Origin: a virus
Taxonomy: Duplodnaviria > Heunggongvirae > Uroviricota > Caudoviricetes
Virus record (IMG/VR): IMGVR_UViG_2660237933_000004
Strand: one strand, 5' to 3'
DNA: 40,475 nt
Notes under the pieces: model-generated
Database searches by the model: none
Told to the model about the DNA's origin: nothing
Seen by the model: the letters and a program-made list of their open reading frames with translations, nothing else
In this document: in pieces, positions 26,275 through 35,334 of the stretch
Numbering within the stretch: position 1 is the first letter of the stretch
Layout: every line of letters begins with the position of its first letter
Position numbers and translations under genes: made by a program

Positions 26275-27801
26275 TCAAAAATAAACCTCACCATCAACCA
26301 TATATTTGAGAGTACTTATCGCCTGCTGGGCGGATATTGTTTTCATTAAAGGATAGTGTTTAAAAACAATGCCATTCATAAAATAGATATCACAGGTTTT
26401 ATTATCTGTATTGATTATGATTTTTTCGAATGTTTTATAGGCAAGTGTACGACATAGCTCTCGCCCATTTTTACTGGTTAAGTCAATAGCATGAAAATCA
26501 CCAAGTGAACTCACCGCTTTACTCTTCAAAGTTTTTAATGATACAGAAGCCCTTCGTAATTCCTTATCTAATACTCTGATTTTTTCTGCTATAGCGGTAA
26601 CTTCAGGCGCAACAGATAATGCAGCAATTAAATTATTAATTTTCATCTGGAGCTCAATAATTTTCAACTCTAAAGTTTCATTAGCATCTTTCTTGTTTTC
26701 AACTGGTTGGATTTTACTACAATTAAAAAGCAACTCATTAATGATATTATAATCAACCAAATCTCTCTTTATTGATGGCCTGTCACATCGATGCAGTCTT
26801 CTCATCGGACAAACATAATAGCCATGCAAACTTCCAGATACCGCATGAACAATCATGGTATTACCACAAGCCTCGCACTTCATAACTGTTCGAAGTAGAT
26901 TTATCAACATAGGATTTTTGCTACTATTGCTAATACCAAAAGGTGCCAACCGAATTTCCTGCACAGCGTAAAACAAATCATCTGATATGACTCTGGGATA
27001 ATAGCCAGCGATTTCACTTATTCCTTTACCTCTTGCACGATATGAAGGTACGCATATACCTATCAGAGCTTTATTCGCTAATAATTTTTCAATTACAGAA
27101 GGCCCCCATGCACTTTCTTTGCCTGAGAAATTTTTTACAGCATGATCATTTAAATACTTGGCTATTGCATTCAATGATCGCCTTTCCATCCTGAGTTTAA
27201 AAATTAGCTCAATCGTTTTCACCCTGTCGGGGTCTGGAATAAAAGCTGTTCTTTTGTCATCCAATGAGAGCCATCTCGGACAAGACGCCGTCATAATCGT
27301 GCCTGACTCCAGTGCATCCTGCCGTTTTTTCTTCCATGATAATTTAACCCGACTTGACTTTATCTCGCTTTCTTCATTTGCCCTTTGTGCTATAAGTATG
27401 GCTTTTATTAATGAATATGGATCATTCAAAGAGTCAATATTATAGACTGTATTATCGCAAAGAGTTATAACATCAATACCGTGATTCAAAATCAATTTCA
27501 GACGCTCAATCGCTTCACCGACTTTTTCTCTTGAAAGTCTGTCCAAACTTTCAACTAACAATGTAGTTCCTGGCAATATATAACCATGCTCTATAGCATC
27601 TAAAAATTCCGAAAAAGCTCCTGATTGTGCATGCTTTCCTTTGAATGCACTTAATCCTAAATCTTCATATGTTATGGTATCAAGATAATAATCACTATTT
27701 ACCTTTAACCATTCAGCAATAAGTCTTCTCTGTCGGTTTAATGAGTCGCCAGACATCTGACCTGGTGATGAAAATCGCATATATGCTATGGCTTTTTTCA
27801 T
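26275..27801 (-). CDS. ybcK: Large serine recombinase (YbcK-like)
   Basis: 508 aa; N-terminal resolvase motif YMRFSSPGQ...SLNRQ, Cys-rich zinc-ribbon region (CEACG...CPMRRLHRC); AT-rich. Confidence 0.8.
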   Translation of the reverse strand: MKKAIAYMRFSSPGQMSGDSLNRQRRLIAEWLKVNSDYYLDTITYEDLGLSAFKGKHAQSGAFSEFLDAIEHGYILPGTTLLVESLDRLSREKVGEAIERLKLILNHGIDVITLCDNTVYNIDSLNDPYSLIKAILIAQRANEESEIKSSRVKLSWKKKRQDALESGTIMTASCPRWLSLDDKRTAFIPDPDRVKTIELIFKLRMERRSLNAIAKYLNDHAVKNFSGKESAWGPSVIEKLLANKALIGICVPSYRARGKGISEIAGYYPRVISDDLFYAVQEIRLAPFGISNSSKNPMLINLLRTVMKCEACGNTMIVHAVSGSLHGYYVCPMRRLHRCDRPSIKRDLVDYNIINELLFNCSKIQPVENKKDANETLELKIIELQMKINNLIAALSVAPEVTAIAEKIRVLDKELRRASVSLKTLKSKAVSSLGDFHAIDLTSKNGRELCRTLAYKTFEKIIINTDNKTCDIYFMNGIVFKHYPLMKTISAQQAISTLKYMVDGEVYF

Positions 27802-28057
27802 GGTGACACCTGCTAACGTATGCTTTTATAAACCTTAGTGGTGAGATATAATTTTTGTTTAATTTTTATTTAAAAAGACAATTAAGGTCACATTATCTTG
27901 AATATACAACAATAATCGTATTGCAATTTTCTTACGCCATAATCTTGAAAGCACAAAAGAATACATAAAAAAATAAAGACATTAACAAAAAGCATAAAAC
28001 GAGGCTCATATAAATATAAGAGCCTCCATATTTTAGTCGTTTAGAAACAAATTATTT

Positions 28058-28390
28058 TTAATGTGGTGTGCTTCGTGACAATAAATTAATAACCAACACT
28101 CCGGCACAAATCAACATCATGCCTATAATGGCTGGCATGTCCAGCCGTTGGCCGAAAAATCCCCATGACAGTAAGCTAATCAGGACAATACCGACTCCTG
28201 ACCAGATAGCATAAGCAATCCCTGTAGGAATATAAGCCAGCGTCTGCGCTAATAACCAGAATGATGCACAATAACAAATAATTGTACCAACAGATGGCCA
28301 TAACCGTGTAAAACCTTCTGAAAACTTCATTAAGGTTGTACCAATGACCTCTGCAAGTATTGCACCACCAAGATAAATATAAGGGTTCAT
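28058..28390 (-). CDS. emrE: Small multidrug resistance efflux protein EmrE
   Basis: 110 aa from MNPYIYLGGAILAEVIGTTLMKFSEGF; four TM helices; matches E. coli EmrE from memory. Confidence 0.85.
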   Translation of the reverse strand: MNPYIYLGGAILAEVIGTTLMKFSEGFTRLWPSVGTIICYCASFWLLAQTLAYIPTGIAYAIWSGVGIVLISLLSWGFFGQRLDMPAIIGMMLICAGVLVINLLSRSTPH

Positions 28391-28457
28391 AGCATATTCT
28401 TTCCTGTTCAAACTGGAGAGAATTGTACTACAGTTTGAACTCAACTCACCTGTTTCA

Positions 28458-28760
28458 TCATTGTGTACCCATTGATGTTCTTTTATATACCCTCAATACC
28501 CGTTTCATCGCGGCACTCTGGCGACACTCCTTAAAAATCAGATTCGTGCTCACCTTTCCTTCCCGTTCTTCTCTGGTAGCGAACCGGTAATACACCGTTC
28601 GCCAGACCTTACCATCAACGACCAGGATTCCTGCCCGCGCCATTTTAGCCGCAGCCTGATTTATGCTGGTTACGGTTGCGCCTGTTACCGCGGCAACGTC
28701 CTGCGCACAGAAGTTCTTATGAGTCCCCAGGTAATGAATAATTGCCTCTTTGCCTGTCAT
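28458..28760 (-). CDS. ren: Ren
   Basis: 100 aa, near-identical to lambda Ren through the first ~90 residues. Confidence 0.75.
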   Translation of the reverse strand: MTGKEAIIHYLGTHKNFCAQDVAAVTGATVTSINQAAAKMARAGILVVDGKVWRTVYYRFATREEREGKVSTNLIFKECRQSAAMKRVLRVYKRTSMGTQ

Positions 28761-29458
28761 ACACTTGCTCCTTTCAGTCCGAACTTAGCTTTAATTTCTG
28801 CGATCTTCGCCAGAGCCTGTGCACGATTTAGAGGTCTACCGCCCATAACAGGAAGTTGTTTTACTGGTTCAGGTATCGTCTCACCACGGTTAATTCGCGC
28901 TGTCATACAGGTCAGTTCATCGGCAGCCTTGCGCCGTAATTCCGCGTCAGTCAGCGCATTGGCCCGCATGTTCTGGTACAAGTTGGTAACCAACCAGTAA
29001 TGCGCGTTCGATTTCCACGGATAAGACTCTGCATCCGGATACAGGCCACGCTTCCGGCAATACTCGTAAACCATATCAACCAGCTCGCTGGCGTTTGGCA
29101 GTCCGGCAATAACGGATGCTTCTTCACGGCACCATGCAACAAACTGCCCGGGTGATGGCAGAAATGGTCGATTCTGCCGACGGGCTACGCGCATTCCTGC
29201 GTTAACCTGTTCCATTGTGGTGATCCCGTTTTCCCGGAAAGCCAGCACCCACTGGCGGCGGATTTCGTTCAGTTCGTTCTGGTCCCGGTTAGCCAGGCTC
29301 GCCGGGAAAGTTGCCAGTAACTGGCTGAACACACCATTGATGATCTGCGCTACCTGTTGTACCTGCGGCTTTTCGTCGTACTGTTCCGGCATGTTGTTGG
29401 CGATCCGACGCATCTGCTCACGGTCAAAGTTAACCATCTGTGCGGCGATGTTTTTCAT
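28757..29458 (-). CDS. P: Replication protein P (DnaB helicase loader)
   Basis: 233 aa, near-identical to lambda P. Confidence 0.9.
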   Translation of the reverse strand: MKNIAAQMVNFDREQMRRIANNMPEQYDEKPQVQQVAQIINGVFSQLLATFPASLANRDQNELNEIRRQWVLAFRENGITTMEQVNAGMRVARRQNRPFLPSPGQFVAWCREEASVIAGLPNASELVDMVYEYCRKRGLYPDAESYPWKSNAHYWLVTNLYQNMRANALTDAELRRKAADELTCMTARINRGETIPEPVKQLPVMGGRPLNRAQALAKIAEIKAKFGLKGASV

Positions 29459-30384
29459 AAATCCACCCCGTAAATCCAGTCAGTGTTTGTCAGGTCGAGT
29501 TTTGGTTTGCTGGCTGTCACGCCTGCCTGTTGCTTGTTACGGTTGATTTCGAGCTGGGTCCACTTGTCGCGGAGTTTGGCCGGACTCAGCACGTTACCGG
29601 ACCAGAAGTTGTCCTGGCATGCCCAGCGGAACAGCACGCACATGTCGCGGTGGTTACGTCCGTCACGTTCACGCATCAGGCGGATATCGTTAGCCCACCC
29701 TGCAAAATTCGGTTTTCTGGCTGATGGCGCGATGGTCTTCACCATGTCAAACATCCACTCTGCGGCGGTCAGGTCTTCTGCTGTCCCCCACTTGCTGCCG
29801 CTCTGAATTGCAGCATCTGGTTTCACCACAGGAAGATCGTTTTCTGGTTGGTCAGAGGATTCGCCAGAATTCTCGGACGAAAAAGGTTTTATATTGTCTT
29901 TTGTTAGTTTGTCTTTTGTGTTTACCTGATTCGGGTAAACGCCTTTACCTGATTTGGGTAAACTTTTCTTACCTGATTCAGGTAAATTTACCTCTTTCAG
30001 GTAAACTTTATTTTTCTTACCTGATTCGGGTAATGTTGACCATTCACTGACCACATTATTAATACCGATATTCCGCCCGCTCTGAATCAAAATCCCACGC
30101 TTTACCAGAACACTTTTTGCAGCAGAACACTTGTGCGGCAATATCCCGGTCAACTCGGAAAGTTGCTCGTTGCTCACCCAATCCAGTTTTTTATTAAAGC
30201 CATATGTTTTGCGCATGACAGCCAGGAAGACCAGAAGCTGGTGCTGTGTTAATCCGGCCAGCATCACAGCTTCCAGCAACTCATTTGCAATGCGCGTATA
30301 ACCATCATCGAGATCTGCCACGCGCGGCTCCTTTTGTGCCGCATCCGGCACTGGAAAATTGAATATCTCAGCAGTGTTTGCCAT
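29455..30384 (-). CDS. O: Replication initiator O
   Basis: Lambda O-like N-terminus (VADLDDGY), iterons inside the gene, and O C-terminus; start chosen at MANTAEIF with GGGAGGA RBS, upstream of which the ORF track extends. Confidence 0.85.
   Translation of the reverse strand: MANTAEIFNFPVPDAAQKEPRVADLDDGYTRIANELLEAVMLAGLTQHQLLVFLAVMRKTYGFNKKLDWVSNEQLSELTGILPHKCSAAKSVLVKRGILIQSGRNIGINNVVSEWSTLPESGKKNKVYLKEVNLPESGKKSLPKSGKGVYPNQVNTKDKLTKDNIKPFSSENSGESSDQPENDLPVVKPDAAIQSGSKWGTAEDLTAAEWMFDMVKTIAPSARKPNFAGWANDIRLMRERDGRNHRDMCVLFRWACQDNFWSGNVLSPAKLRDKWTQLEINRNKQQAGVTASKPKLDLTNTDWIYGVDL
29923..30033. repeat. Replication origin iterons (O-binding sites), five 18-bp direct repeats
   Basis: TACCTGATTCGGGTAAAC-like units at 29923, 29946, 29969, 29987, 30016 within the O coding region. 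Confidence 0.7.
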
Positions 30385-30470
30385 AATTCCTCCCGCAATG
30401 AGTGTGTTACGATTTGCACCTGAAAGTCGGTTCTGTTCCCGCAGACCGACTTTCGCCATTTTTGAACCTG

Positions 30471-31010
30471 TCATATTGCCCCCAGCATGGTGGTGACCAT
30501 CGCCATCAATGGACCAGCCAGATCCGGGTCCACTCGAAACATCGACACAATGCCTTCACTCATCTCCTTCAGTTTCTGGTGGCGTGGTGCGTTGAGAATG
30601 ACAGCCTGTTTTGCCTCACTGAGTTCCTTTTCCATTTCAGCCAACCTAGCCATAAAGCTATCCTGCTCAACCAGGTAACCGCGATATTCCAGCGGTAGTA
30701 CCGCCAGAATTGCCGGGGTCAGTTCACGCACGTTATTTCGGTATTTTTCAGAATCGAATTTGTTATCGAGGAAGCGGAACAGCTTCTGGCGTGCACGGCT
30801 GACATCATCAGGGAAATCGATGGTGCCGCCGCCCTGCTCCCGATACTCATTCACAATGAGTGCGGCAACAACATCCTGATTATCTGCAGCCGACCAGGCG
30901 CGGACGGCATCACGGATTTTTTCGTGGCCTGGAGCTTGTTTTGTTTGAGAACGATTTATCACCGCAGTCGGGCTAAATCCGCTAGTCTGTTGGTATGTAA
31001 GTGGTTGCAT
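30471..31010 (-). CDS. YdaT-like protein in cII position
   Basis: 179 aa; EYREQGGG and TPAILAVLP segments resemble Rac YdaT from memory; follows a Cro/YdaS-type regulator. Confidence 0.45.
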   Translation of the reverse strand: MQPLTYQQTSGFSPTAVINRSQTKQAPGHEKIRDAVRAWSAADNQDVVAALIVNEYREQGGGTIDFPDDVSRARQKLFRFLDNKFDSEKYRNNVRELTPAILAVLPLEYRGYLVEQDSFMARLAEMEKELSEAKQAVILNAPRHQKLKEMSEGIVSMFRVDPDLAGPLMAMVTTMLGAI

Positions 31011-31079
31011 AATTGACTCCTTTAGTTTGAATTGACTGTTAAGTTGATTGCTTATTGTTAAAGAGCGTGAAATGGAAAT

Positions 31080-31310
31080 TTAAGCTGCGTTCTTTTCGGT
31101 GTGTGGAAACAACTTCGGAAGATCCGGGCGAATCTGGTATGCCTTCACTACTCCACCAGTAGCCGTAACAATGCTGCCGACATGTTCAGGGGATACCTTT
31201 GCTTTGTTGTGAAGCCACTTATAGACGGCCTGCTGTGAAACTTCGCAGGCAGCGCCCAGTTTCTTTTGTGAACCAACGATATTGATCGCTGTTTTGATAG
31301 CTGGGTTCAT
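31080..31310 (-). CDS. cro: Cro-like repressor (YdaS-type HTH)
   Basis: 76 aa; helix-turn-helix (QKKLGAACEVSQQAVYKW); divergent from cI across a 104-bp operator region. Confidence 0.65.
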   Translation of the reverse strand: MNPAIKTAINIVGSQKKLGAACEVSQQAVYKWLHNKAKVSPEHVGSIVTATGGVVKAYQIRPDLPKLFPHTEKNAA

Positions 31311-31350
31311 AACAACCTCCGTGGTTAATTTGAATCAAGATTAAAACTGT

Positions 31351-31371
31351 GGTTGTTTTTAGTCAACAACC
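31351..31371. promoter_or_regulatory. Candidate OR operator palindrome
   Basis: GGTTGTT-TTTAGTC-AACAACC perfect 7-bp inverted repeat between cro and cI; the same GTTGTT/AACAAC hexamers recur at the pL region. Confidence 0.35.
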
Positions 31372-31414
31372 ATTTTCGTTTGATGGAATAAAACCTTGGT
31401 TGTACATTTGGACT

Positions 31415-32104
31415 ATGAAAACAACACTCTCAGAAAGACTTAAAGAAGCCAGATTAGCGCGAGGCCTTACACAAAAGGCGCTTGGGGATTTGGTCGGGGT
31501 TAGCCAAGCTGCTATTCAGAAAATCGAAACAGGGAAAGCTAACCAAACAACTAAAATCGTGGAGATCGCGAACGCTTTGGGTGTGCGCGCAGAATGGTTA
31601 TCTTCTGGCGTTGGAAATATGTCAGACAGTACAGTGCAACCAATACCATCAACTGTCAGCCATTCCAAATACTTTAAGATTGACGTTCTTGATATAGAAG
31701 TGAGTGCCGGGCCGGGAGTCATCAACCGTGAGTTTGTAGAAGTTCTACGCTCGGTTGAGTACTCGTTTGACGATGCTCGTCACATGTTCGATGGTAGGAA
31801 GGCAGAAAATATCCGCATCATTAACGTACGCGGTGACAGCATGTCAGGAACGATCGAACCAGGTGATCTGCTGTTCGTTGATATCACGGTTAAATCTTTC
31901 GACGGTGATGGTATCTATGCGTTTCTGTATGACGACACCGCCCATGTAAAGCGCCTGCAAATGATGAAGGATAAGCTACTGGTTATCTCTGATAACAAGA
32001 GCTACTCGCCGTGGGACCCAATTGAGAAAGACGAGATGAACCGGGTATTCATCTTCGGTAAGGTTATTGGGAGCATGCCGCAGACATACAGGAAGCATGG
32101 GTAA
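31415..32104 (+). CDS. cI: CI-type prophage repressor (HTH plus S24 LexA-like autopeptidase domain)
   Basis: 229 aa from MKTTLSERLKEARLARGLTQKALGD; C-terminal GDSMSGTIEPGDLLFVD Ser nucleophile motif and a downstream Lys. Confidence 0.85.
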   Translation: MKTTLSERLKEARLARGLTQKALGDLVGVSQAAIQKIETGKANQTTKIVEIANALGVRAEWLSSGVGNMSDSTVQPIPSTVSHSKYFKIDVLDIEVSAGPGVINREFVEVLRSVEYSFDDARHMFDGRKAENIRIINVRGDSMSGTIEPGDLLFVDITVKSFDGDGIYAFLYDDTAHVKRLQMMKDKLLVISDNKSYSPWDPIEKDEMNRVFIFGKVIGSMPQTYRKHG

Positions 32105-32183
32105 CTACCGAATCGAATACTATAACTACGTAAAAAGACTATACATATCAACATTTTTTCTTTGATACATAGATGGAATAGCA

Positions 32184-33029
32184 ATGAAGCTTAACTTTTA
32201 TGCCGTATACATTCAAAATACTAGCTCTCTGAAAAAACAACCTATAGATTTATTGTCATTTCTGACAGAGCAGGTAATAAACGCTAAGAATCATGCTCAG
32301 CAGATTGAAGACTACTATGTTTTTGCACATCATATAATTAATGATAGTTTTATCCTGACAAAAACATTTGATTCAGAACTAGTTAAAAAAATCAATAGAA
32401 AAACACTTTCGGTTGATGAAATAAGAAATGCGCTTAGTTCAGATGAGTCATTAGGATTCCCATCATTTTTATTAATAAGAAAAAATATTATCGGATATGC
32501 AAATACATTATTCGGCCCAAAAACTCGTGATCTTGCAGCTTACCTAAAAGGAAAGGGAGCAATACCTGATGGATACTCACTATTCATAGAACCTTTGATG
32601 AGAGATATAACAAAGGATGATGCTTTAAGCATGCAGTTTATAGGAAGAACAACGGTAAGGGTTGAAAATGGGTCAAAACTTCTCAGCCCCCTACTTAGAG
32701 TGCTTGGTGCACAAGCAGTTGACGAAGAGCTCTTAGAAGGACTGGAAATAACCGTGAAGCCTAAACGTTTACGAAATATAAAATCTGTTGCCAAAGGGAT
32801 TATTAGCAATGTGGATGAACAACATGAGAGCATTCACCTGAAGGGTAAAGAACAAGCTGCAGATATTCTTACAGAATATTATCTTTCTGACAAAGGCCAC
32901 ATTGGAGCAAATATCTATAAATCATCGAATGAAGACATAGCATCCGAAATGTCAACTTGCTATCTCAGGATGAAATTGATTATAATGGAAAGTTATAATA
33001 GAACATTTGGAGATGAGTTACCACTATAA
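32184..33029 (+). CDS. rexA: RexA-like abortive-infection protein
   Basis: 281 aa directly downstream of cI; conserved segments ESLGFPSF, IEPLMR..TKDD, FIGRTTVRVE, ILTEYYLSDKGH match lambda RexA from memory; AT-rich. Confidence 0.7.
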   Translation: MKLNFYAVYIQNTSSLKKQPIDLLSFLTEQVINAKNHAQQIEDYYVFAHHIINDSFILTKTFDSELVKKINRKTLSVDEIRNALSSDESLGFPSFLLIRKNIIGYANTLFGPKTRDLAAYLKGKGAIPDGYSLFIEPLMRDITKDDALSMQFIGRTTVRVENGSKLLSPLLRVLGAQAVDEELLEGLEITVKPKRLRNIKSVAKGIISNVDEQHESIHLKGKEQAADILTEYYLSDKGHIGANIYKSSNEDIASEMSTCYLRMKLIIMESYNRTFGDELPL

Positions 33030-33031
33030 TA

Positions 33032-33487
33032 TTGGGGGGCTATATGAAGTCACGGCACAGGATAGCGCCAGCAATAATACTTTTTCTTTTGCCATTCCCA
33101 ATTATTATAAGTGCGTATTATCTAATCCGCCACATGTTTCCGGGTATGGCTTTTAGCGAGCACAGAGATGCGCTGGGTGGCGCTATTGCCGCTTATTCTG
33201 GTACTACAATTGCGATACTTATAGCCGCTTTAACATTTCTGATGGGGCTGGGAGGCAGGAATATTCGCAAATTGAAAACATATGGCTATATGACATCAAT
33301 CATAATCATGTATGGATTAACTTTTTGCGAGCTAGGAGTACTTTTCTTTAATGGCTTGTTTTTACTTGCAACAAGTAAAAATCCTATACTAATGCTACCA
33401 TCAATCGCTATTGGTTTATCAGGTACGTCACTAATCCATATTGGCATGCTCCTGATGCAATTACTTAATCTGTCAAAACATAAGTAA
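33032..33487 (+). CDS. rexB: RexB-like membrane protein
   Basis: 151 aa, four hydrophobic helices; FSEHRDALG...TIAILIAALTFL...YGYMTS closely matches lambda RexB from memory. Confidence 0.7.
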   Translation: MGGYMKSRHRIAPAIILFLLPFPIIISAYYLIRHMFPGMAFSEHRDALGGAIAAYSGTTIAILIAALTFLMGLGGRNIRKLKTYGYMTSIIIMYGLTFCELGVLFFNGLFLLATSKNPILMLPSIAIGLSGTSLIHIGMLLMQLLNLSKHK

Positions 33488-33512
33488 CCCGGCCTTGCCG
33501 GGTTTTCTTTTG
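33487..33512 (+). terminator. Intrinsic terminator after rexB
   Basis: ACCCGGC-CTTG-CCGGGT hairpin followed by TTTTCTTTT directly after the rexB stop codon. Confidence 0.6.
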
Positions 33513-33638
33513 CCTCCCCTCATCACACAAACCGTTCGAAAAACCACCATAACCCCCGCTTCAGTTATCGCTATGCGATGCAAGTCACAAAATAAATCCA
33601 TCCTAAATACAACCAGTTATATCTAAAACAACCAATAA

Positions 33639-33681
33639 AACAACTTTTGTTGTTGACGATAAAACAACTATAGTTTTAAAT
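33639..33681 (+). promoter_or_regulatory. Candidate pL promoter with overlapping operator
   Basis: 16-bp perfect palindrome AACAACTTTTGTTGTT (33639-33654) overlapping TTGACG (33653-33658), 17-bp spacer, TTAAAT (33676-33681). Confidence 0.4.
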
Positions 33682-33879
33682 GAATTCATCGCAACAACAC
33701 AACGATACGGCAATCACCTGATTCACCGTTGCGATGACCGCTTAGATCCGCAGCTTGAATTTCAGCAGGCTCCGGGGAGTGCGAGGGGTGAAGCGGACGC
33801 GTGAACGTCGGTGTGACCAGCTGAAATCAACCCAACTCAACACCTCATACCTCAGTCGCTTCAACGAGGCGGCTTAGTT

Positions 33880-34170
33880 ATGACAACCGGCGGCCATCCA
33901 CCGCCTGAATACGCGCAGAAGTCTCTATATGTTCAGCAGCCCAGCTTACGGGCAGGAGTTTTTATGGTTCATCAACATTACGGAACGCAGACCGTTAATC
34001 GAGGTGCGGTCATGCCAGGAATGCTGGTCAAACACAAAGATGGTACCTGGACTGCATCAGCTAATTTACGCGGACGGCTTTATCTGCATCGCGGCATCGA
34101 GCGCACTTATACCCGTGATTTGCTCGTAGAAGTTTTTCTCGACGGACGCGGTAACGGCCTGAATCACTAA
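33880..34170 (+). CDS. Hypothetical protein in the kil/cIII position (first ORF of the pL operon)
   Basis: 96 aa ORF upstream of gam; no arginine-rich N-type motif; start codon uncertain. Confidence 0.3.
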   Translation: MTTGGHPPPEYAQKSLYVQQPSLRAGVFMVHQHYGTQTVNRGAVMPGMLVKHKDGTWTASANLRGRLYLHRGIERTYTRDLLVEVFLDGRGNGLNH

Positions 34171-34246
34171 CCCCCCTTTCCTGTTTTCCTAATCAGCCTG
34201 GCATTTCGCGGGCGATATTTTCACAGCCATTTTCAGGAGTTCAGCC

Positions 34247-34543
34247 ATGAACGCTTATTACATTCAGGATCGTCTTGAGGCTCAGAGCTGGGCGCGTCAC
34301 TACCAGCAGATCGCCCGTGAAGAGAAAGAGGCAGAACTGGCAGACGACATGGAAAAAGGCCTGCCCCAGCACCTGTTTGAATCGCTATGCATCGATCATT
34401 TGCAACGCCACGGGGCCAGCAAAAAAGCCATTACCCGTGCGTTTGATGACGATGTTGAGTTTCAGGAGCGCATGGCAGAACACATCCGGTACATGGTTGA
34501 AACCATTGCTCACCACCAGGTTGATATTGATTCAGAGGTATAA
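34247..34543 (+). CDS. gam: Gam (RecBCD inhibitor), short form
   Basis: 98 aa, near-identical to the C-terminal 98 residues of lambda Gam; an in-frame stop at 34190 excludes the long form. Confidence 0.9.
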
Positions 34544-34548
34544 AACGG

Positions 34549-35334
34549 ATGAGTACAGCACTCGCAACGCTGGCAGGGAAGCTGGCTGAACGTGTCGGCA
34601 TGGATTCTGTCGACCCACAGGAACTGATCACCACTCTTCGCCAGACAGCATTTAAAGGCGATGCCAGCGATGCGCAGTTCATCGCATTGTTGATCGTCGC
34701 CAACCAGTACGGCCTTAATCCGTGGACGAAAGAAATTTACGCCTTCCCTGATAAGCAGAACGGCATTGTTCCGGTGGTGGGCGTTGATGGCTGGTCCCGC
34801 ATCATCAATGAAAACCAGCAGTTTGATGGCATGGACTTTGAGCAGGACAATGAATCCTGTACATGCCGGATTTACCGCAAGGACCGTAATCATCCGATCT
34901 GCGTTACCGAATGGATGGATGAATGCCGCCGCGAACCATTCAAAACCCGCGAAGGCAGAGAAATCACGGGGCCGTGGCAGTCGCATCCCAAACGGATGTT
35001 ACGGCATAAAGCCATGATTCAGTGTGCCCGTCTGGCCTTCGGATTTGCTGGTATCTATGACAAGGATGAAGCCGAGCGCATTGTCGAAAATACTGCATAC
35101 ACTGCAGAACGTCAGCCAGAACGCGACATCACTCCGGTTAACGATGAAACCATGCAGGAGATTAACACTCTGCTGATCGCCCTGGATAAAACATGGGATG
35201 AAGACTTATTGCCGCTCTGTTCCCAGATATTTCGCCGCGACATTCGCGCATCGTCAGAACTGACACAGGCCGAAGCAGTGAAAGCTCTTGGATTCCTGAA
35301 ACAGAAAGCCACTGAGCAGAAGGTGGCAGCATGA
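34549..35334 (+). CDS. bet: Bet (Red-beta single-strand annealing protein)
   Basis: 261 aa, near-identical to lambda Bet. Confidence 0.9.

Follow-up and report, generated by a model that had tools for sequence, protein, structure and literature searches.

The 40,475-nucleotide stretch of viral DNA analysed here (the window) carries a control region in which cro, a ydaT-like gene, O and P follow one another on the minus strand and diverge from cI, rexA and rexB on the plus strand (Table 1). The initial annotation of this stretch had described a YdaS-type Cro followed by a 179-aa YdaT-like protein in place of the lambda regulators, together with putative operator half-sites of the form GTTGTT/AACAAC, and this observation as a whole was confirmed, both reading frames being present where it had placed them. 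Alignment with hetero-immune phages sets the boundaries of the module at the ATG of ydaT and at the start of pL, as in classical imm regions. Because homology to the hetero-immune phage 4A7 ends at the ydaT ATG, the cro-ydaT spacer, which contains the direct repeat AATTGACT twice, is the left edge of the immunity segment; the immunity-specific DNA ends at about 33688. An Rfam scan of positions 28000-35000 gave no credible match.

Table 1. Genes, promoters and predicted regulatory sites of the module (positions are those of the window)
Feature	Position	Strand	Description or basis
P	28757-29458	-	
O	29455-30474	-	
ydaT-like	30471-31010	-	179-aa YdaT-family protein, CII positional and functional equivalent by homology; Pfam, PHROG, PDB, fold
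Candidate cis element	30945-31010	-	First 66 nt of ydaT; pRE-like antisense promoter and/or YdaT box
cro-ydaT spacer	31011-31079	-	Left end of immunity-specific segment
cro	31080-31310	-	76-aa Cro, YdaS family; Pfam, PDB, PHROG, Rac YdaS alignment
Operator-like 16-mer	31311-31326		AACAACCTCCGTGGTT, over the cro Shine-Dalgarno sequence; 1 mismatch; 11.5 bits (leave-out matrix)
pR	31338-31366	-	-35 TTGACT (31366 to 31361), 17-nt spacer, -10 TAATCT (31343 to 31338); read from sequence
OR1 (predicted)	31342-31357		TAAAACTGTGGTTGTT (AACAACCACAGTTTTA on the cro strand); 2 mismatches; 19.6 bits; conserved in five phages
Inverted repeat	31350-31372		TGGTTGTT-N7-AACAACCA, perfect; right half of OR1 and left half of OR2, around the pR -35
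OR2 (predicted)	31365-31380		AACAACCATTTTCGTT; 16.1 bits, matrix without window sites
pRM	31380-31408	+	-35 TTGATG (31380-85), 17-nt spacer, -10 TACATT (31403-08); sequence
OR3 (predicted)	31389-31404		TAAAACCTTGGTTGTA; 20.5 bits, matrix without window sites
cI	31415-32104	+	Repressor, 229 aa, 434-like HTH and S24 (LexA-type) autocleavage domain; Pfam HTH_3, Peptidase_S24
rexA	32184-33029	+	Pfam RexA, 3.8e-59
rexB	33032-33487	+	Pfam RexB, 8.3e-41
Hairpin terminator	33486-33504		Terminator scan
OL2 (predicted)	33639-33654		AACAACTTTTGTTGTT, perfect arms; 0 mismatches; 20.7 bits; homologous pairs in four relatives
pL	33652-33681	+	-35 TTGACG (33652-57), -10-like TTAAAT/TAAATG (33675-81); sequence
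OL1 (predicted)	33663-33678		AACAACTATAGTTTTA; 2 mismatches; 22.9 bits

The family assignments of the two early regulators were borne out by several comparisons. The Cro protein belongs to Pfam YdaS_toxin (PF15943; E 4.1e-17, 62.2 bits against a cut-off of 30), aligns with Rac YdaS at 30% identity over 63 aa (E 1e-8), matches the Xfaso1 Cro structure (PDB 3bd1, E 7e-4) and falls into PHROG 35, transcriptional repressor; it is a single-HTH protein encoded divergently from the repressor gene, across a spacer of 104 bp. The 179-aa protein, whose gene directly follows the cro-like gene and precedes the replication genes, belongs to Pfam YdaT_toxin (PF06254; E 1.4e-29, 102.8 bits against a cut-off of 21), is 35% identical to Rac YdaT over 96 aa (E 3e-12), falls into PHROG 163, 'CII-like transcriptional activator' (4e-67), and matches PDB entries 8bt1 and 3c4r by sequence. 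Its AF2 model (pLDDT 74.8) gave significant Foldseek hits only to these same two structures (probability 1.00, TM 0.71-0.73 per target, rmsd 2.7-3.2 over about 118 columns) and predicts an 8bt1-like fold, with an HTH (POU-like) domain followed by a long helix at residues 119-138. The predicted architecture consists of a disordered segment (residues 1-26), a YdaT core (about 28-140) and two additional C-terminal helices. Furthermore, R79, in ..QKLFRFLDN.., is invariant in 16 members of the subfamily and aligns with the Arg of the Rac 'HRW' motif; it corresponds to the Arg of recognition helix alpha3 (Arg60 in CP-933P, R57 in Rac), the neighbouring Rac Trp being Phe here.

That YdaS and YdaT are the equivalents of Cro and CII has been published for Rac and CP-933P (PMC8630535, PMC9986795, PMC11879457). 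Pfam nevertheless names both families 'Bacterial toxin YdaS/YdaT', and Rac ydaS and ydaT are toxic on ectopic expression (PMC5700377, PMC5700373), so that the two genes might be read as a toxin-antitoxin pair. We consider this highly improbable, as they occupy the exact places of cro and cII, between OR and O/P and facing an S24-domain cI, while YdaT is a tetrameric DNA-binding protein with a POU-like HTH (PMC9986795) and YdaS gives footprints on operators (PMC8630535). The obligate co-occurrence of such a pair also fails, since a YdaS-type gene lies upstream of this YdaT subfamily in only 35 of 62 loci, and in four phages with this type of Cro the cII position is taken by different, shorter genes, of which three are annotated as CII. 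The toxin-antitoxin reading has been explicitly challenged (PMC5917428) and is rejected in the literature (PMC5917428, PMC8630535). As to the organization of these genes, our comparisons show that in recombination YdaT-type CII genes form one unit with the replication module, which is exchanged independently of the module made up of cro, cI and the operators.

On the other side of the divergent promoters, cI contains HTH_3 (5.4e-13) and Peptidase_S24 (1.2e-18) domains. Its N-terminal domain aligns without gaps with residues 2-64 of the 434 repressor (E 7.6e-10), its C-terminal domain is matched by UmuD, and the S24 autocleavage domain leads us to expect that it is RecA-inducible. rexA and rexB are co-transcribed with cI, and the terminator scan places a hairpin at their end. 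The predicted start of pRM coincides with the A of the cI ATG, the start codon also chosen by PGAP (31415), and related phages have TAnnTT at the equivalent place without a Shine-Dalgarno sequence; from these sequences, the cI mRNA made from pRM is most likely leaderless. Several phage records start cI at a GTG inside the predicted OR1, in contrast to the ATG of PGAP, and their start-codon annotation is corrected here. The phages most similar in the whole of cI (4A7, SE1, RAH1 and SW-70, 63-81% identity) share only its C-terminal domain; they are unusable for footprinting because their N-terminal domains and operators (AATAGCAATGCGTATTA-type) are unrelated. Informative relatives were obtained by searches with the cI N-terminal domain and with Cro, and comprise four phages (of Klebsiella, Providencia, Salmonella and Erwinia) with 55-63% identity in the former and 66-87% in the latter. 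The cI recognition helix, SQAAIQK, is the same in relatives L007 and L008 and reads SQANIQK in L009.

The window contains 42 copies of the hexamer GTTGTT/AACAAC, where shuffled sequence gives 25.4 +/- 5.2; four of them lie in 31311-31425 (Poisson P ~1e-6) and five in 33627-33698 (~1.5e-9). Two of these nine are probably incidental: the copy at 31420-25 corresponds to codons 2-4 of cI and is not conserved in relatives, and the copy at 33693 lies in DNA common to hetero-immune phages. Clustering, conservation and matrix recovery support the earlier proposal that the hexamers are operator half-sites, and refine the likely unit to a 16-bp dyad, AACAAC-N4-GTTGTT, with a 434-type core ACAAC-N4-GTTGT and half-site centres 10 bp apart, which would be present three times at OR and twice at OL. 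Allowing up to two mismatches, this unit is found six times in the window, and five of the six lie in OR or OL, spaced by 23 and 24 bp in the former and by 24 bp in the latter. In the same four relatives, three OR sites are retained at distances of 24 and 23-24 bp, as are two OL sites 24 bp apart. When the sites of these phages were made into a position weight matrix, with no site of the window included, it recovered exactly OR1, OR2, OR3, OL2 and OL1, where 0.18 sites of at least 15 bits would be expected by chance per window. Mean pairwise identity is 0.89 in the half-site columns, as against 0.42 for the N4 centre and 0.46 for the DNA between operators. Both regions are AT-rich, and with the two incidental copies one could suspect an accident of composition in intergenic DNA; the Poisson values, the recovery by a matrix from other phages and the column identities lead us to reject this, and its probability is negligible.

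The claim that the cI-cro spacer and the pL region share perfect palindromes stands in part. Inverted repeats with perfect arms are present in both, but they are not one shared element: the one in OR is an N7 repeat (31350-31372), the one at pL is AACAAC-TTTT-GTTGTT (33639-33654), and neither spacer is self-complementary. As the N4 unit occurs three times at OR, the N7 palindrome is the junction of the adjacent OR1 and OR2 and not itself an operator. One could instead take the perfect GTTGTT-N7-AACAAC palindrome (20-23 bp) as the unit, bound by one dimer across the pR -35, on which it is centred; it is the only perfect match to this pattern in the window, and four of five phages preserve the N7 distance between these two half-sites. 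We regard this as improbable and reject it in favour of the N4 dyad on pattern, matrix and conservation. The N7 unit occurs once, its counterpart at pL is N8 (3 mismatches in the N7 register) and the OR of phiEt88 also has N8; under this reading the outer half-sites of OR1, OR2, OR3 and OL have no partner, whereas with N4 each conserved half-site finds one at an unvarying distance. In addition, the N7 half-site centres would be 13 bp apart, yet the DNA-binding domain of cI is 434-like and 434 sites are 14 bp long (PMC1636474).

The 31350-31372 repeat was flagged on both strands by the terminator scan (8-9-bp stem, 7-nt loop and T-rich tail) and folds as RNA at -11.1 kcal/mol (z -1.99), which would suit an intrinsic terminator or an attenuator working in both directions between cI and cro. 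The stem is, however, weak and AT-rich with 3 G-C pairs, and the hairpin lies upstream of both predicted transcription starts and would therefore not be transcribed from pR or pRM. In relatives, its arms vary as independent operator halves (for example GTGTTT in UPF_BP1 and an N8 loop in phiEt88) without a compensatory pattern. A role at the RNA level is accordingly very unlikely, and we return to the N4 dyads as the operators. The recurrence, spacing and conservation across phages of these sites are shown here, and their binding and order of occupancy are inferred. Pattern, matrix and conservation together predict multiple dyad operators at OR and OL overlapping pR, pRM and pL.

A consensus promoter scan called no promoter in OR; it missed pR because the -10 matches the consensus at only 3 of 6 positions. 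The layout of pR is the same in the four relatives, where the -10 reads TATTCT, TATTAT, TATATT and TATAAT. The predicted OR1 lies between the -35 and -10 of pR; OR2 covers part of the pR -35, borders on the pRM -35 and is centred at about -42.5 of pRM; and OR3 overlaps the spacer and -10 of pRM. A centre near -42.5 is the position from which lambda cI activates pRM. At pL, OL2 overlaps the -35 and OL1 lies between the -35 and the -10-like element, and the arrangement GTTGTTGAC..AACAAC-N4-GTTTTAAAT recurs in five phages. The fold of the pL leader RNA is not significant (z -1.05). Counting against the model are the -10 elements of pR (TAATCT) and pL, which are weak matches to the consensus, the number of strong sites at OL, two and not three, and the lack of the Rac/CP-933P YdaT box near the cro/ydaT junction.

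A further point that the three-site model of OR does not account for is the conserved 16-mer on the cro Shine-Dalgarno sequence, which is kept in four of five related phages at 30-31 bp from OR1. Its changes among relatives are not compensatory, which makes a DNA site likelier than the RNA hairpin that we also considered, and it is possibly a weak fourth operator. If so, cI or Cro could act at about +5 to +20 of pR.

Taken together, we propose that dimers of cI and the YdaS-family Cro would bind the 16-bp dyads, with OR1 in the spacer and -10 of pR, OR2 over the pR -35 at the lambda-like activating position, OR3 over the pRM -10, and pL covered by the two OL sites. Cro made from pR would act on the same sites as cI, shutting off pRM and later pR. 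That it prefers these operators in the reverse order is suggested by analogy with the CP-933P footprints (PMC8630535) and by the co-variation of Cro, cI and operators across five phages. The YdaT-family protein would be the next product of the pR transcript, in the place of CII. By homology with the YdaT of Rac and CP-933P, it may be a tetrameric HTH regulator acting near the cro/ydaT junction on a leftward promoter that supplies cI during the lysogeny decision; YdaT has been reported as a repressor in CP-933P and as an activator in Rac, and both its target and its regulatory sign here are inferred.

The 5' end of ydaT itself is a candidate for such a target. Its first 66 nt are conserved at the DNA level across 56 homologues, in which two unusual codons, CTT (Leu4, 88%) and ATA (Ile18, 84%), are the most conserved synonymous choices of the gene, and the segment includes the block GCGATGATAAATCGC, present in the window as GGTGATAAATCGT (30951-30963). 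It could be a pRE-like antisense promoter and/or a YdaT box. A search of the 56 ydaT loci for a position-conserved sigma-70 antisense promoter found none, the only trace being a -10-like TATCAT without a -35. The YdaT box of Rac and CP-933P, TTGATT-N6-AATCAA, differs at 3 or more positions from every sequence near the cro/ydaT junction and is not enriched in the window (32 against 24.5 expected), which argues for another YdaT target sequence and not against membership of the family. No enrichment of the block-B motif, GATGATAAATCGC, was seen in the rest of the window, and thus no second target of the pI or paQ type was found. One may speculate, with more doubt than conviction, that the 179/180-aa YdaT subfamily recognizes a site other than TTGATT-N6-AATCAA, possibly within its own first 66 coding nt, and that the 16-mer at the cro ribosome-binding site is a genuine fourth operator. 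The start of ydaT would then double as a pRE-like control element that moves with ydaT between immunity types.

Based on these results, the region controls lysis and lysogeny in an ordinary way and belongs to a lambda-like prophage that is very common in E. coli, and we hold with considerable confidence that it is the imm module of a functional-looking lambdoid prophage, inverted within the window, with a 434-type cI, a YdaS-family Cro and YdaT as a stand-in for CII. Systems of this kind are already understood, the substitution of YdaS/YdaT for Cro/CII having been published (PMC5917428, PMC8630535, PMC9986795, PMC11879457), and the understanding of the lambdoid switch is unchanged. The operator set was not found described elsewhere: our search for the operator strings returned no paper giving these sequences in the library covered, and the operator intervals carry no annotated feature in the phage record examined. 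The value of the present work is therefore practical and not conceptual, since over a quarter of the complete genomes of E. coli have this immunity type (80% or more of the module in at least 1,497 out of 5,426). The predicted ACAAC-N4-GTTGT sites, of which OR has three and OL two, can serve to predict homo- and hetero-immunity among E. coli prophages, and the module makes a 434-like repressor and its operator, with the fifth base changed by nature, available for studies of specificity.

The description of the early regulators as not lambda-like holds for the protein families only, Cro and CII here coming from different ones; operators and promoters are laid out almost exactly as in lambda OR/OL. 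As in lambda, pRM and pR are divergent, three operators stand 23-24 bp apart with the OR2 centre near -42 of pRM and OR3 over pRM, cI is probably leaderless and followed by rexA/rexB, pL has its own operators, and O and P with iterons lie downstream. Unlike lambda, the operators have a different sequence and measure 16 bp, not 17, OL has two sites, and no N gene was seen between pL and kil. In the reference sequence, the operator of phage 434 reads ACAAT-N4-ATTGT; it is 14 bases long, and the outer 4+4 are conserved (PMC1636474). Here the 5+4+5 bp geometry, the outer ACAA/TTGT, the variable centre and the first Gln of the recognition helix are kept, whereas the fifth base is C (ACAAC) where 434 has T or G, the recognition helix is SQAAIQK in place of TQQSIEQ, OL has two strong sites and not three, Cro is of the YdaS family and not 434-Cro-like, and the cII position is held by a YdaT-family gene.

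With PaaR2/YdaS/YdaT of CP-933P and RacR/YdaS/YdaT of Rac, the module shares the order of repressor, divergent ydaS and ydaT, the Pfam families, the YdaT fold of 8bt1 and the key Arg of the recognition helix. The proteins are nonetheless only 30-35% identical, the repressor is a classical S24-containing cI, unlike RacR with its 158 aa, no toxin-antitoxin cargo lies beside it, the operators are unrelated to the GTTTAGTAA-type palindromes of CP-933P, the TTGATT-N6-AATCAA box is absent, and members of this YdaT subfamily are longer, by 26 residues at the N-terminus and by about 40 at the C-terminus. Closer in Cro (67% identical) are PA28 and related Stx1a-converting phages, which have the N4 dyad geometry and the three-site layout (TATAAC-N4-GTTATC, AACAAC-N4-GTTATT and TATAAC-N4-GTTATT) and differ by one half-site base (TATAAC, as against TACAAC or AACAAC here), a lambda-type cII and a diverged repressor, the N-terminal domain of cI being about 52% identical in one Stx1 phage group. 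Finally, the Escherichia phages PhiR34_1, PhiR5_1, PhiR26_1, PhiR47_2, IdasGreatGrand and Turner, as well as E. coli prophages, carry the same module at 95-99% identity; it is annotated there as cI / Cro / cII (or CII-like activator) / O and shows no difference of substance.

Operators are predicted here on either side of cI. A lambdoid early region is present in the window, in inverted orientation, and the interval 30471-31414 highlighted by the initial annotation corresponds exactly to its two rightward regulators plus the cI-cro spacer (see the table). The five iteron copies inside O, palindromes of 17-20 nt (TTACCTGATTCGGGTAA) at spacings of 19-29 bp, presumably form a replication origin, as in lambda. 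On the other side, a leader of about 180 nt separates pL from kil, gam and bet; inspection of 33690-34170 revealed no N-like ORF between pL and kil, no Rfam match and no significant RNA fold (z -1.05). The nin-side region is similar to the DLP12 cryptic prophage; its genes include ren, a small multidrug resistance gene of the EmrE type and one for a serine recombinase like YbcK, names that follow the annotation of the homologous region in phage PhiR34_1.

Features of the early region and its control sites
Feature	Coordinates	Strand	Details
Nin-side region	26275-28760		
ybcK-like recombinase gene	26275-27801	-	
EmrE-like gene	28058-28444	-	
P	28757-29458	-	
O	29455-30474	-	
Iterons	29921-30035		inside O
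YdaT-like ORF	30471-31010	-	179 aa; CII position
Cro ORF	31080-31310	-	76 aa
cI-cro spacer			104 bp
Predicted OR1	31342-31357		
Predicted OR2	31365-31380		
Predicted OR3	31389-31404		
Predicted pR			GTTGTTGACT, with -35 at 31366->31361; -10 TAATCT 31343->31338; 17-nt spacer holding OR1
Predicted pRM			-35 TTGATG 31380-85, abuts OR2; -10 TACATT 31403-08, overlaps OR3; 17-nt spacer
cI	31415-32104	+	HTH_3 + Peptidase_S24 domains
rexA + rexB	32184-33487	+	
Terminator hairpin	33486-33504		
AT-rich promoter region	~33620-33690		then kil, gam, bet
Predicted OL2	33639-33654		
Predicted OL1	33663-33678		
kil	33880-34170		PHROG 294

The window contains 42 copies of the hexamer GTTGTT/AACAAC, more than the 25.4 +/- 5.2 expected, with strong clusters at OR (4 copies in 115 bp, P ~1e-6) and in the pL region (5 in 72 bp, P ~1.5e-9). 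Arranged as the dyad AACAAC-N4-GTTGTT with up to two mismatches, the hexamer occurs six times in 40 kb, five of these matches starting at 31311, 31342, 31365, 33639 (perfect) and 33663, and a copy with three mismatches lies at 31389. The sites at 31342, 31365 and 31389 are spaced by 23 and 24 bp and the two pL sites by 24 bp, which is the spacing of lambda operators. Perfect palindromes had initially been described as common to the spacer and pL. Each region does hold one, but they are of different design: the single perfect GTTGTT-N7-AACAAC of the window (31352-31370) lies in the spacer and the perfect N4 dyad at pL, where a pattern scan of the window found nothing comparable to the N7 form. 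We rejected the N7 palindrome (31350-31372) as an operator in itself, as it is composed of the right half of OR1 and the left half of OR2.

The comparison with other phages depended on the part of cI that was used. Relatives found with the whole protein had only its C-terminal domain in common and unrelated operators. In 4A7, SE1, RAH1 and SW-70, cI is 63-81% identical overall to that of the window, which the C-terminal S24 domain alone accounts for; their N-terminal DNA-binding domains are about 46-50% identical and their operators are of different specificity. Domain mosaicism within cI can thus mislead immunity typing by whole-protein identity. Searches with the cI N-terminal domain and Cro yielded four phages with moderate divergence in both proteins (Klebsiella ST101-KPC2phi6.1, Providencia PSTCR7lys, Salmonella UPF_BP1 and Erwinia phiEt88). 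Each of them carries three N4 dyads between cI and cro, spaced by 24 and 23-24 bp, and a pair 24 bp apart beyond cI. A symmetrised matrix built exclusively from their twelve OR sites scored OR1, OR2, OR3, OL2 and OL1 of the window at 19.6, 16.1, 20.5, 20.7 and 22.9 bits, respectively. Column identity over the five phages is 0.89 in the half-sites, 0.42 in the central four bases and 0.46 in inter-operator DNA. Because the half-sites are conserved and a matrix from foreign phages recovers them, there is good comparative evidence that OR1-3 and OL1-2 are operators, and the initial proposal that the hexamers are likely operator half-sites is strengthened.

The next matrix scores were 15.3 bits at 27903-27922, 11.9 bits at 33634-33653 (which overlaps OL2 out of register), 11.6 bits at 31544-31563, within the coding part of cI, and 11.5 bits for the site over the cro Shine-Dalgarno sequence. 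The first of these is an isolated operator-like site (TATACAACAATAATCGTATT) upstream of the ybcK-like gene; it may be accidental, with a chance expectation for 15 bits or more of 0.18 per window in first-order Markov simulations. At 31311-31326, the central four bases of an operator-like dyad (AACAACCTCCGTGGTT) complement the cro Shine-Dalgarno sequence. This dyad is kept in four of the five related phages, 30-31 bp from OR1, scores 16.5 bits in the Providencia phage and may act as a fourth, weak operator located around +5 to +20 relative to the pR start. An RNA hairpin at the same place is unsupported, the changes among relatives not being compensatory.

The promoters were read from the sequence and are backed by conservation; a consensus scan gave no support. 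Counterparts of the pR -10 in relatives read TATTCT, TATTAT, TATATT or TATAAT, and the pL design OL2-GAC(G)...OL1-AAAT is common to all five phages. As the pRM -10 ends 6 nt before the cI ATG and none of the five phages has a Shine-Dalgarno sequence upstream of cI, the cI mRNA is likely leaderless, like that of lambda. With such a start at the ATG, the centre of OR2 falls at -42.5 of pRM, the activating position in lambda. The paaR2 mRNA of CP-933P has also been reported as leaderless (PMC8630535). For the cI start itself, PGAP picks ATG 31415, and several GenBank phage records pick GTG 31349 (251 aa), inside OR1.

Sharp mosaic junctions at 31010/31012 and ~33688 separate the window from the hetero-immune 4A7, Perceval, D2 and others. 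Homology with 4A7, whose YdaT is 99% identical, spans O and ydaT and ends two bases beyond the ydaT ATG; in 4A7-type phages it restarts at ~33688, directly after the pL -10. These limits define an immunity-specific cassette of the classical imm type at ~31011-33688 (~2.7 kb), comprising cro, OR, cI, rexAB and OL, and assign ydaT to the replication-side module. Of 62 loci that encode this YdaT subfamily, just 35 have a YdaS-type gene upstream, and four phages with this Cro/cI type have other, shorter genes at the cII position, three of them annotated CII. The "YdaS/YdaT pair" is therefore a juxtaposition rather than a unit.

Both family assignments of the initial annotation held. The 76-aa protein matches Pfam PF15943 above its cut-off (E 4.1e-17), is 30% identical to Rac YdaS and matches P22_Cro and HTH_3 more weakly; its closest solved structures are Xfaso1 Cro and XPH1, and we identify it by sequence as a Cro of the YdaS family. 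The 179-aa protein is a member of the YdaT family (PF06254, E 1.4e-29; PHROG 163 "CII-like transcriptional activator", 4e-67; 35% identity over 96 residues to Rac YdaT). It has sequence matches to 8bt1 (CP-933P YdaT) and 3c4r, the only significant structural matches of its AlphaFold2 model (pLDDT 74.8; TM 0.71-0.73). A disordered N-terminal extension of 26 residues and about 40 additional residues at the C-terminus set it apart from the YdaT of Rac and CP-933P. It belongs to a subfamily of 179-180 aa (50-75% identity), widespread among Enterobacteriaceae prophages and named "toxin YdaT domain-containing protein" or "regulator" at NCBI. The C-terminal ~40 residues of this subfamily (30471-30600 in the window) form two predicted helices beyond the YdaT core, closed by a conserved hydrophobic tail, GPLMxMVTSMLG; a role in protease recognition, by analogy with the lambda CII C-terminus, would be speculation.

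CP-933P YdaT, a tetramer with POU-like HTH domains, recognises TTGATT-N6-AATCAA where ydaS meets ydaT, close to a leftward promoter (PMC9986795). Rac YdaT binds almost the same box, placed over its own start codon, and stimulates transcription of racR from a reverse promoter (PMC11879457). We infer a similar mode of action here from these homologues; the TTGATT-N6-AATCAA box is absent near the cro/ydaT junction here. Since 4A7 shares no DNA upstream of the ydaT ATG, a common target should be inside ydaT. The first 66 nt of the gene (30945-31010) are conserved at the DNA level in 56 homologues, with the rare codons CTT (Leu4, 88%) and ATA (Ile18, 84%) as the best-kept synonymous choices of the whole gene, and contain the conserved blocks ATGCAATCACTTACGTATCAACA and GCGATGATAAATCGC. 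The antisense of GCGATGATAAATCGC includes a -10-like TATCAT, with no conserved -35 among the homologues. The window copy reads TATCAC, both ATCA repeats of ATGCAATCACTTACGTATCAACA read ACCA, and GCGATGATAAATCGC has no other occurrence in the window. This segment is a candidate embedded control element.

The replacement of Cro/CII by YdaS/YdaT was proposed from gene context and has been tested experimentally (PMC5917428, PMC8630535, PMC9986795, PMC11879457). The labels Cro and CII-like are already given to the two genes in PHROGs and in recent phage records, and the module is present in at least 1,497 of 5,426 complete E. coli genomes. Our literature search found no description of operators for this immunity type. 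Its nearest comparison is phage 434, whose repressor (residues 2-64) aligns ungapped with the N-terminal domain of the window cI (E 7.6e-10). The 434 operators are 14-mers (reference ACAAT-N4-ATTGT); their outer 4+4 bases are conserved, and contacts involve the five outer bases of each half (PMC1636474). The window core, ACAAC-N4-GTTGT, shares this geometry and the four outer bases but differs at the fifth, and the recognition helix differs along with it (TQQSIEQ in 434, SQAAIQK in the window). In phage PA28, the sites read TATAAC-N4-GTTAT(C/T) and are laid out in the same way, and Cro is 67% identical to the window protein (as it is in a group of Stx1a-converting phages); these systems therefore form a family of related specificities. 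The switch is thus a further example of the 434/lambda kind, rather than a separate kind.
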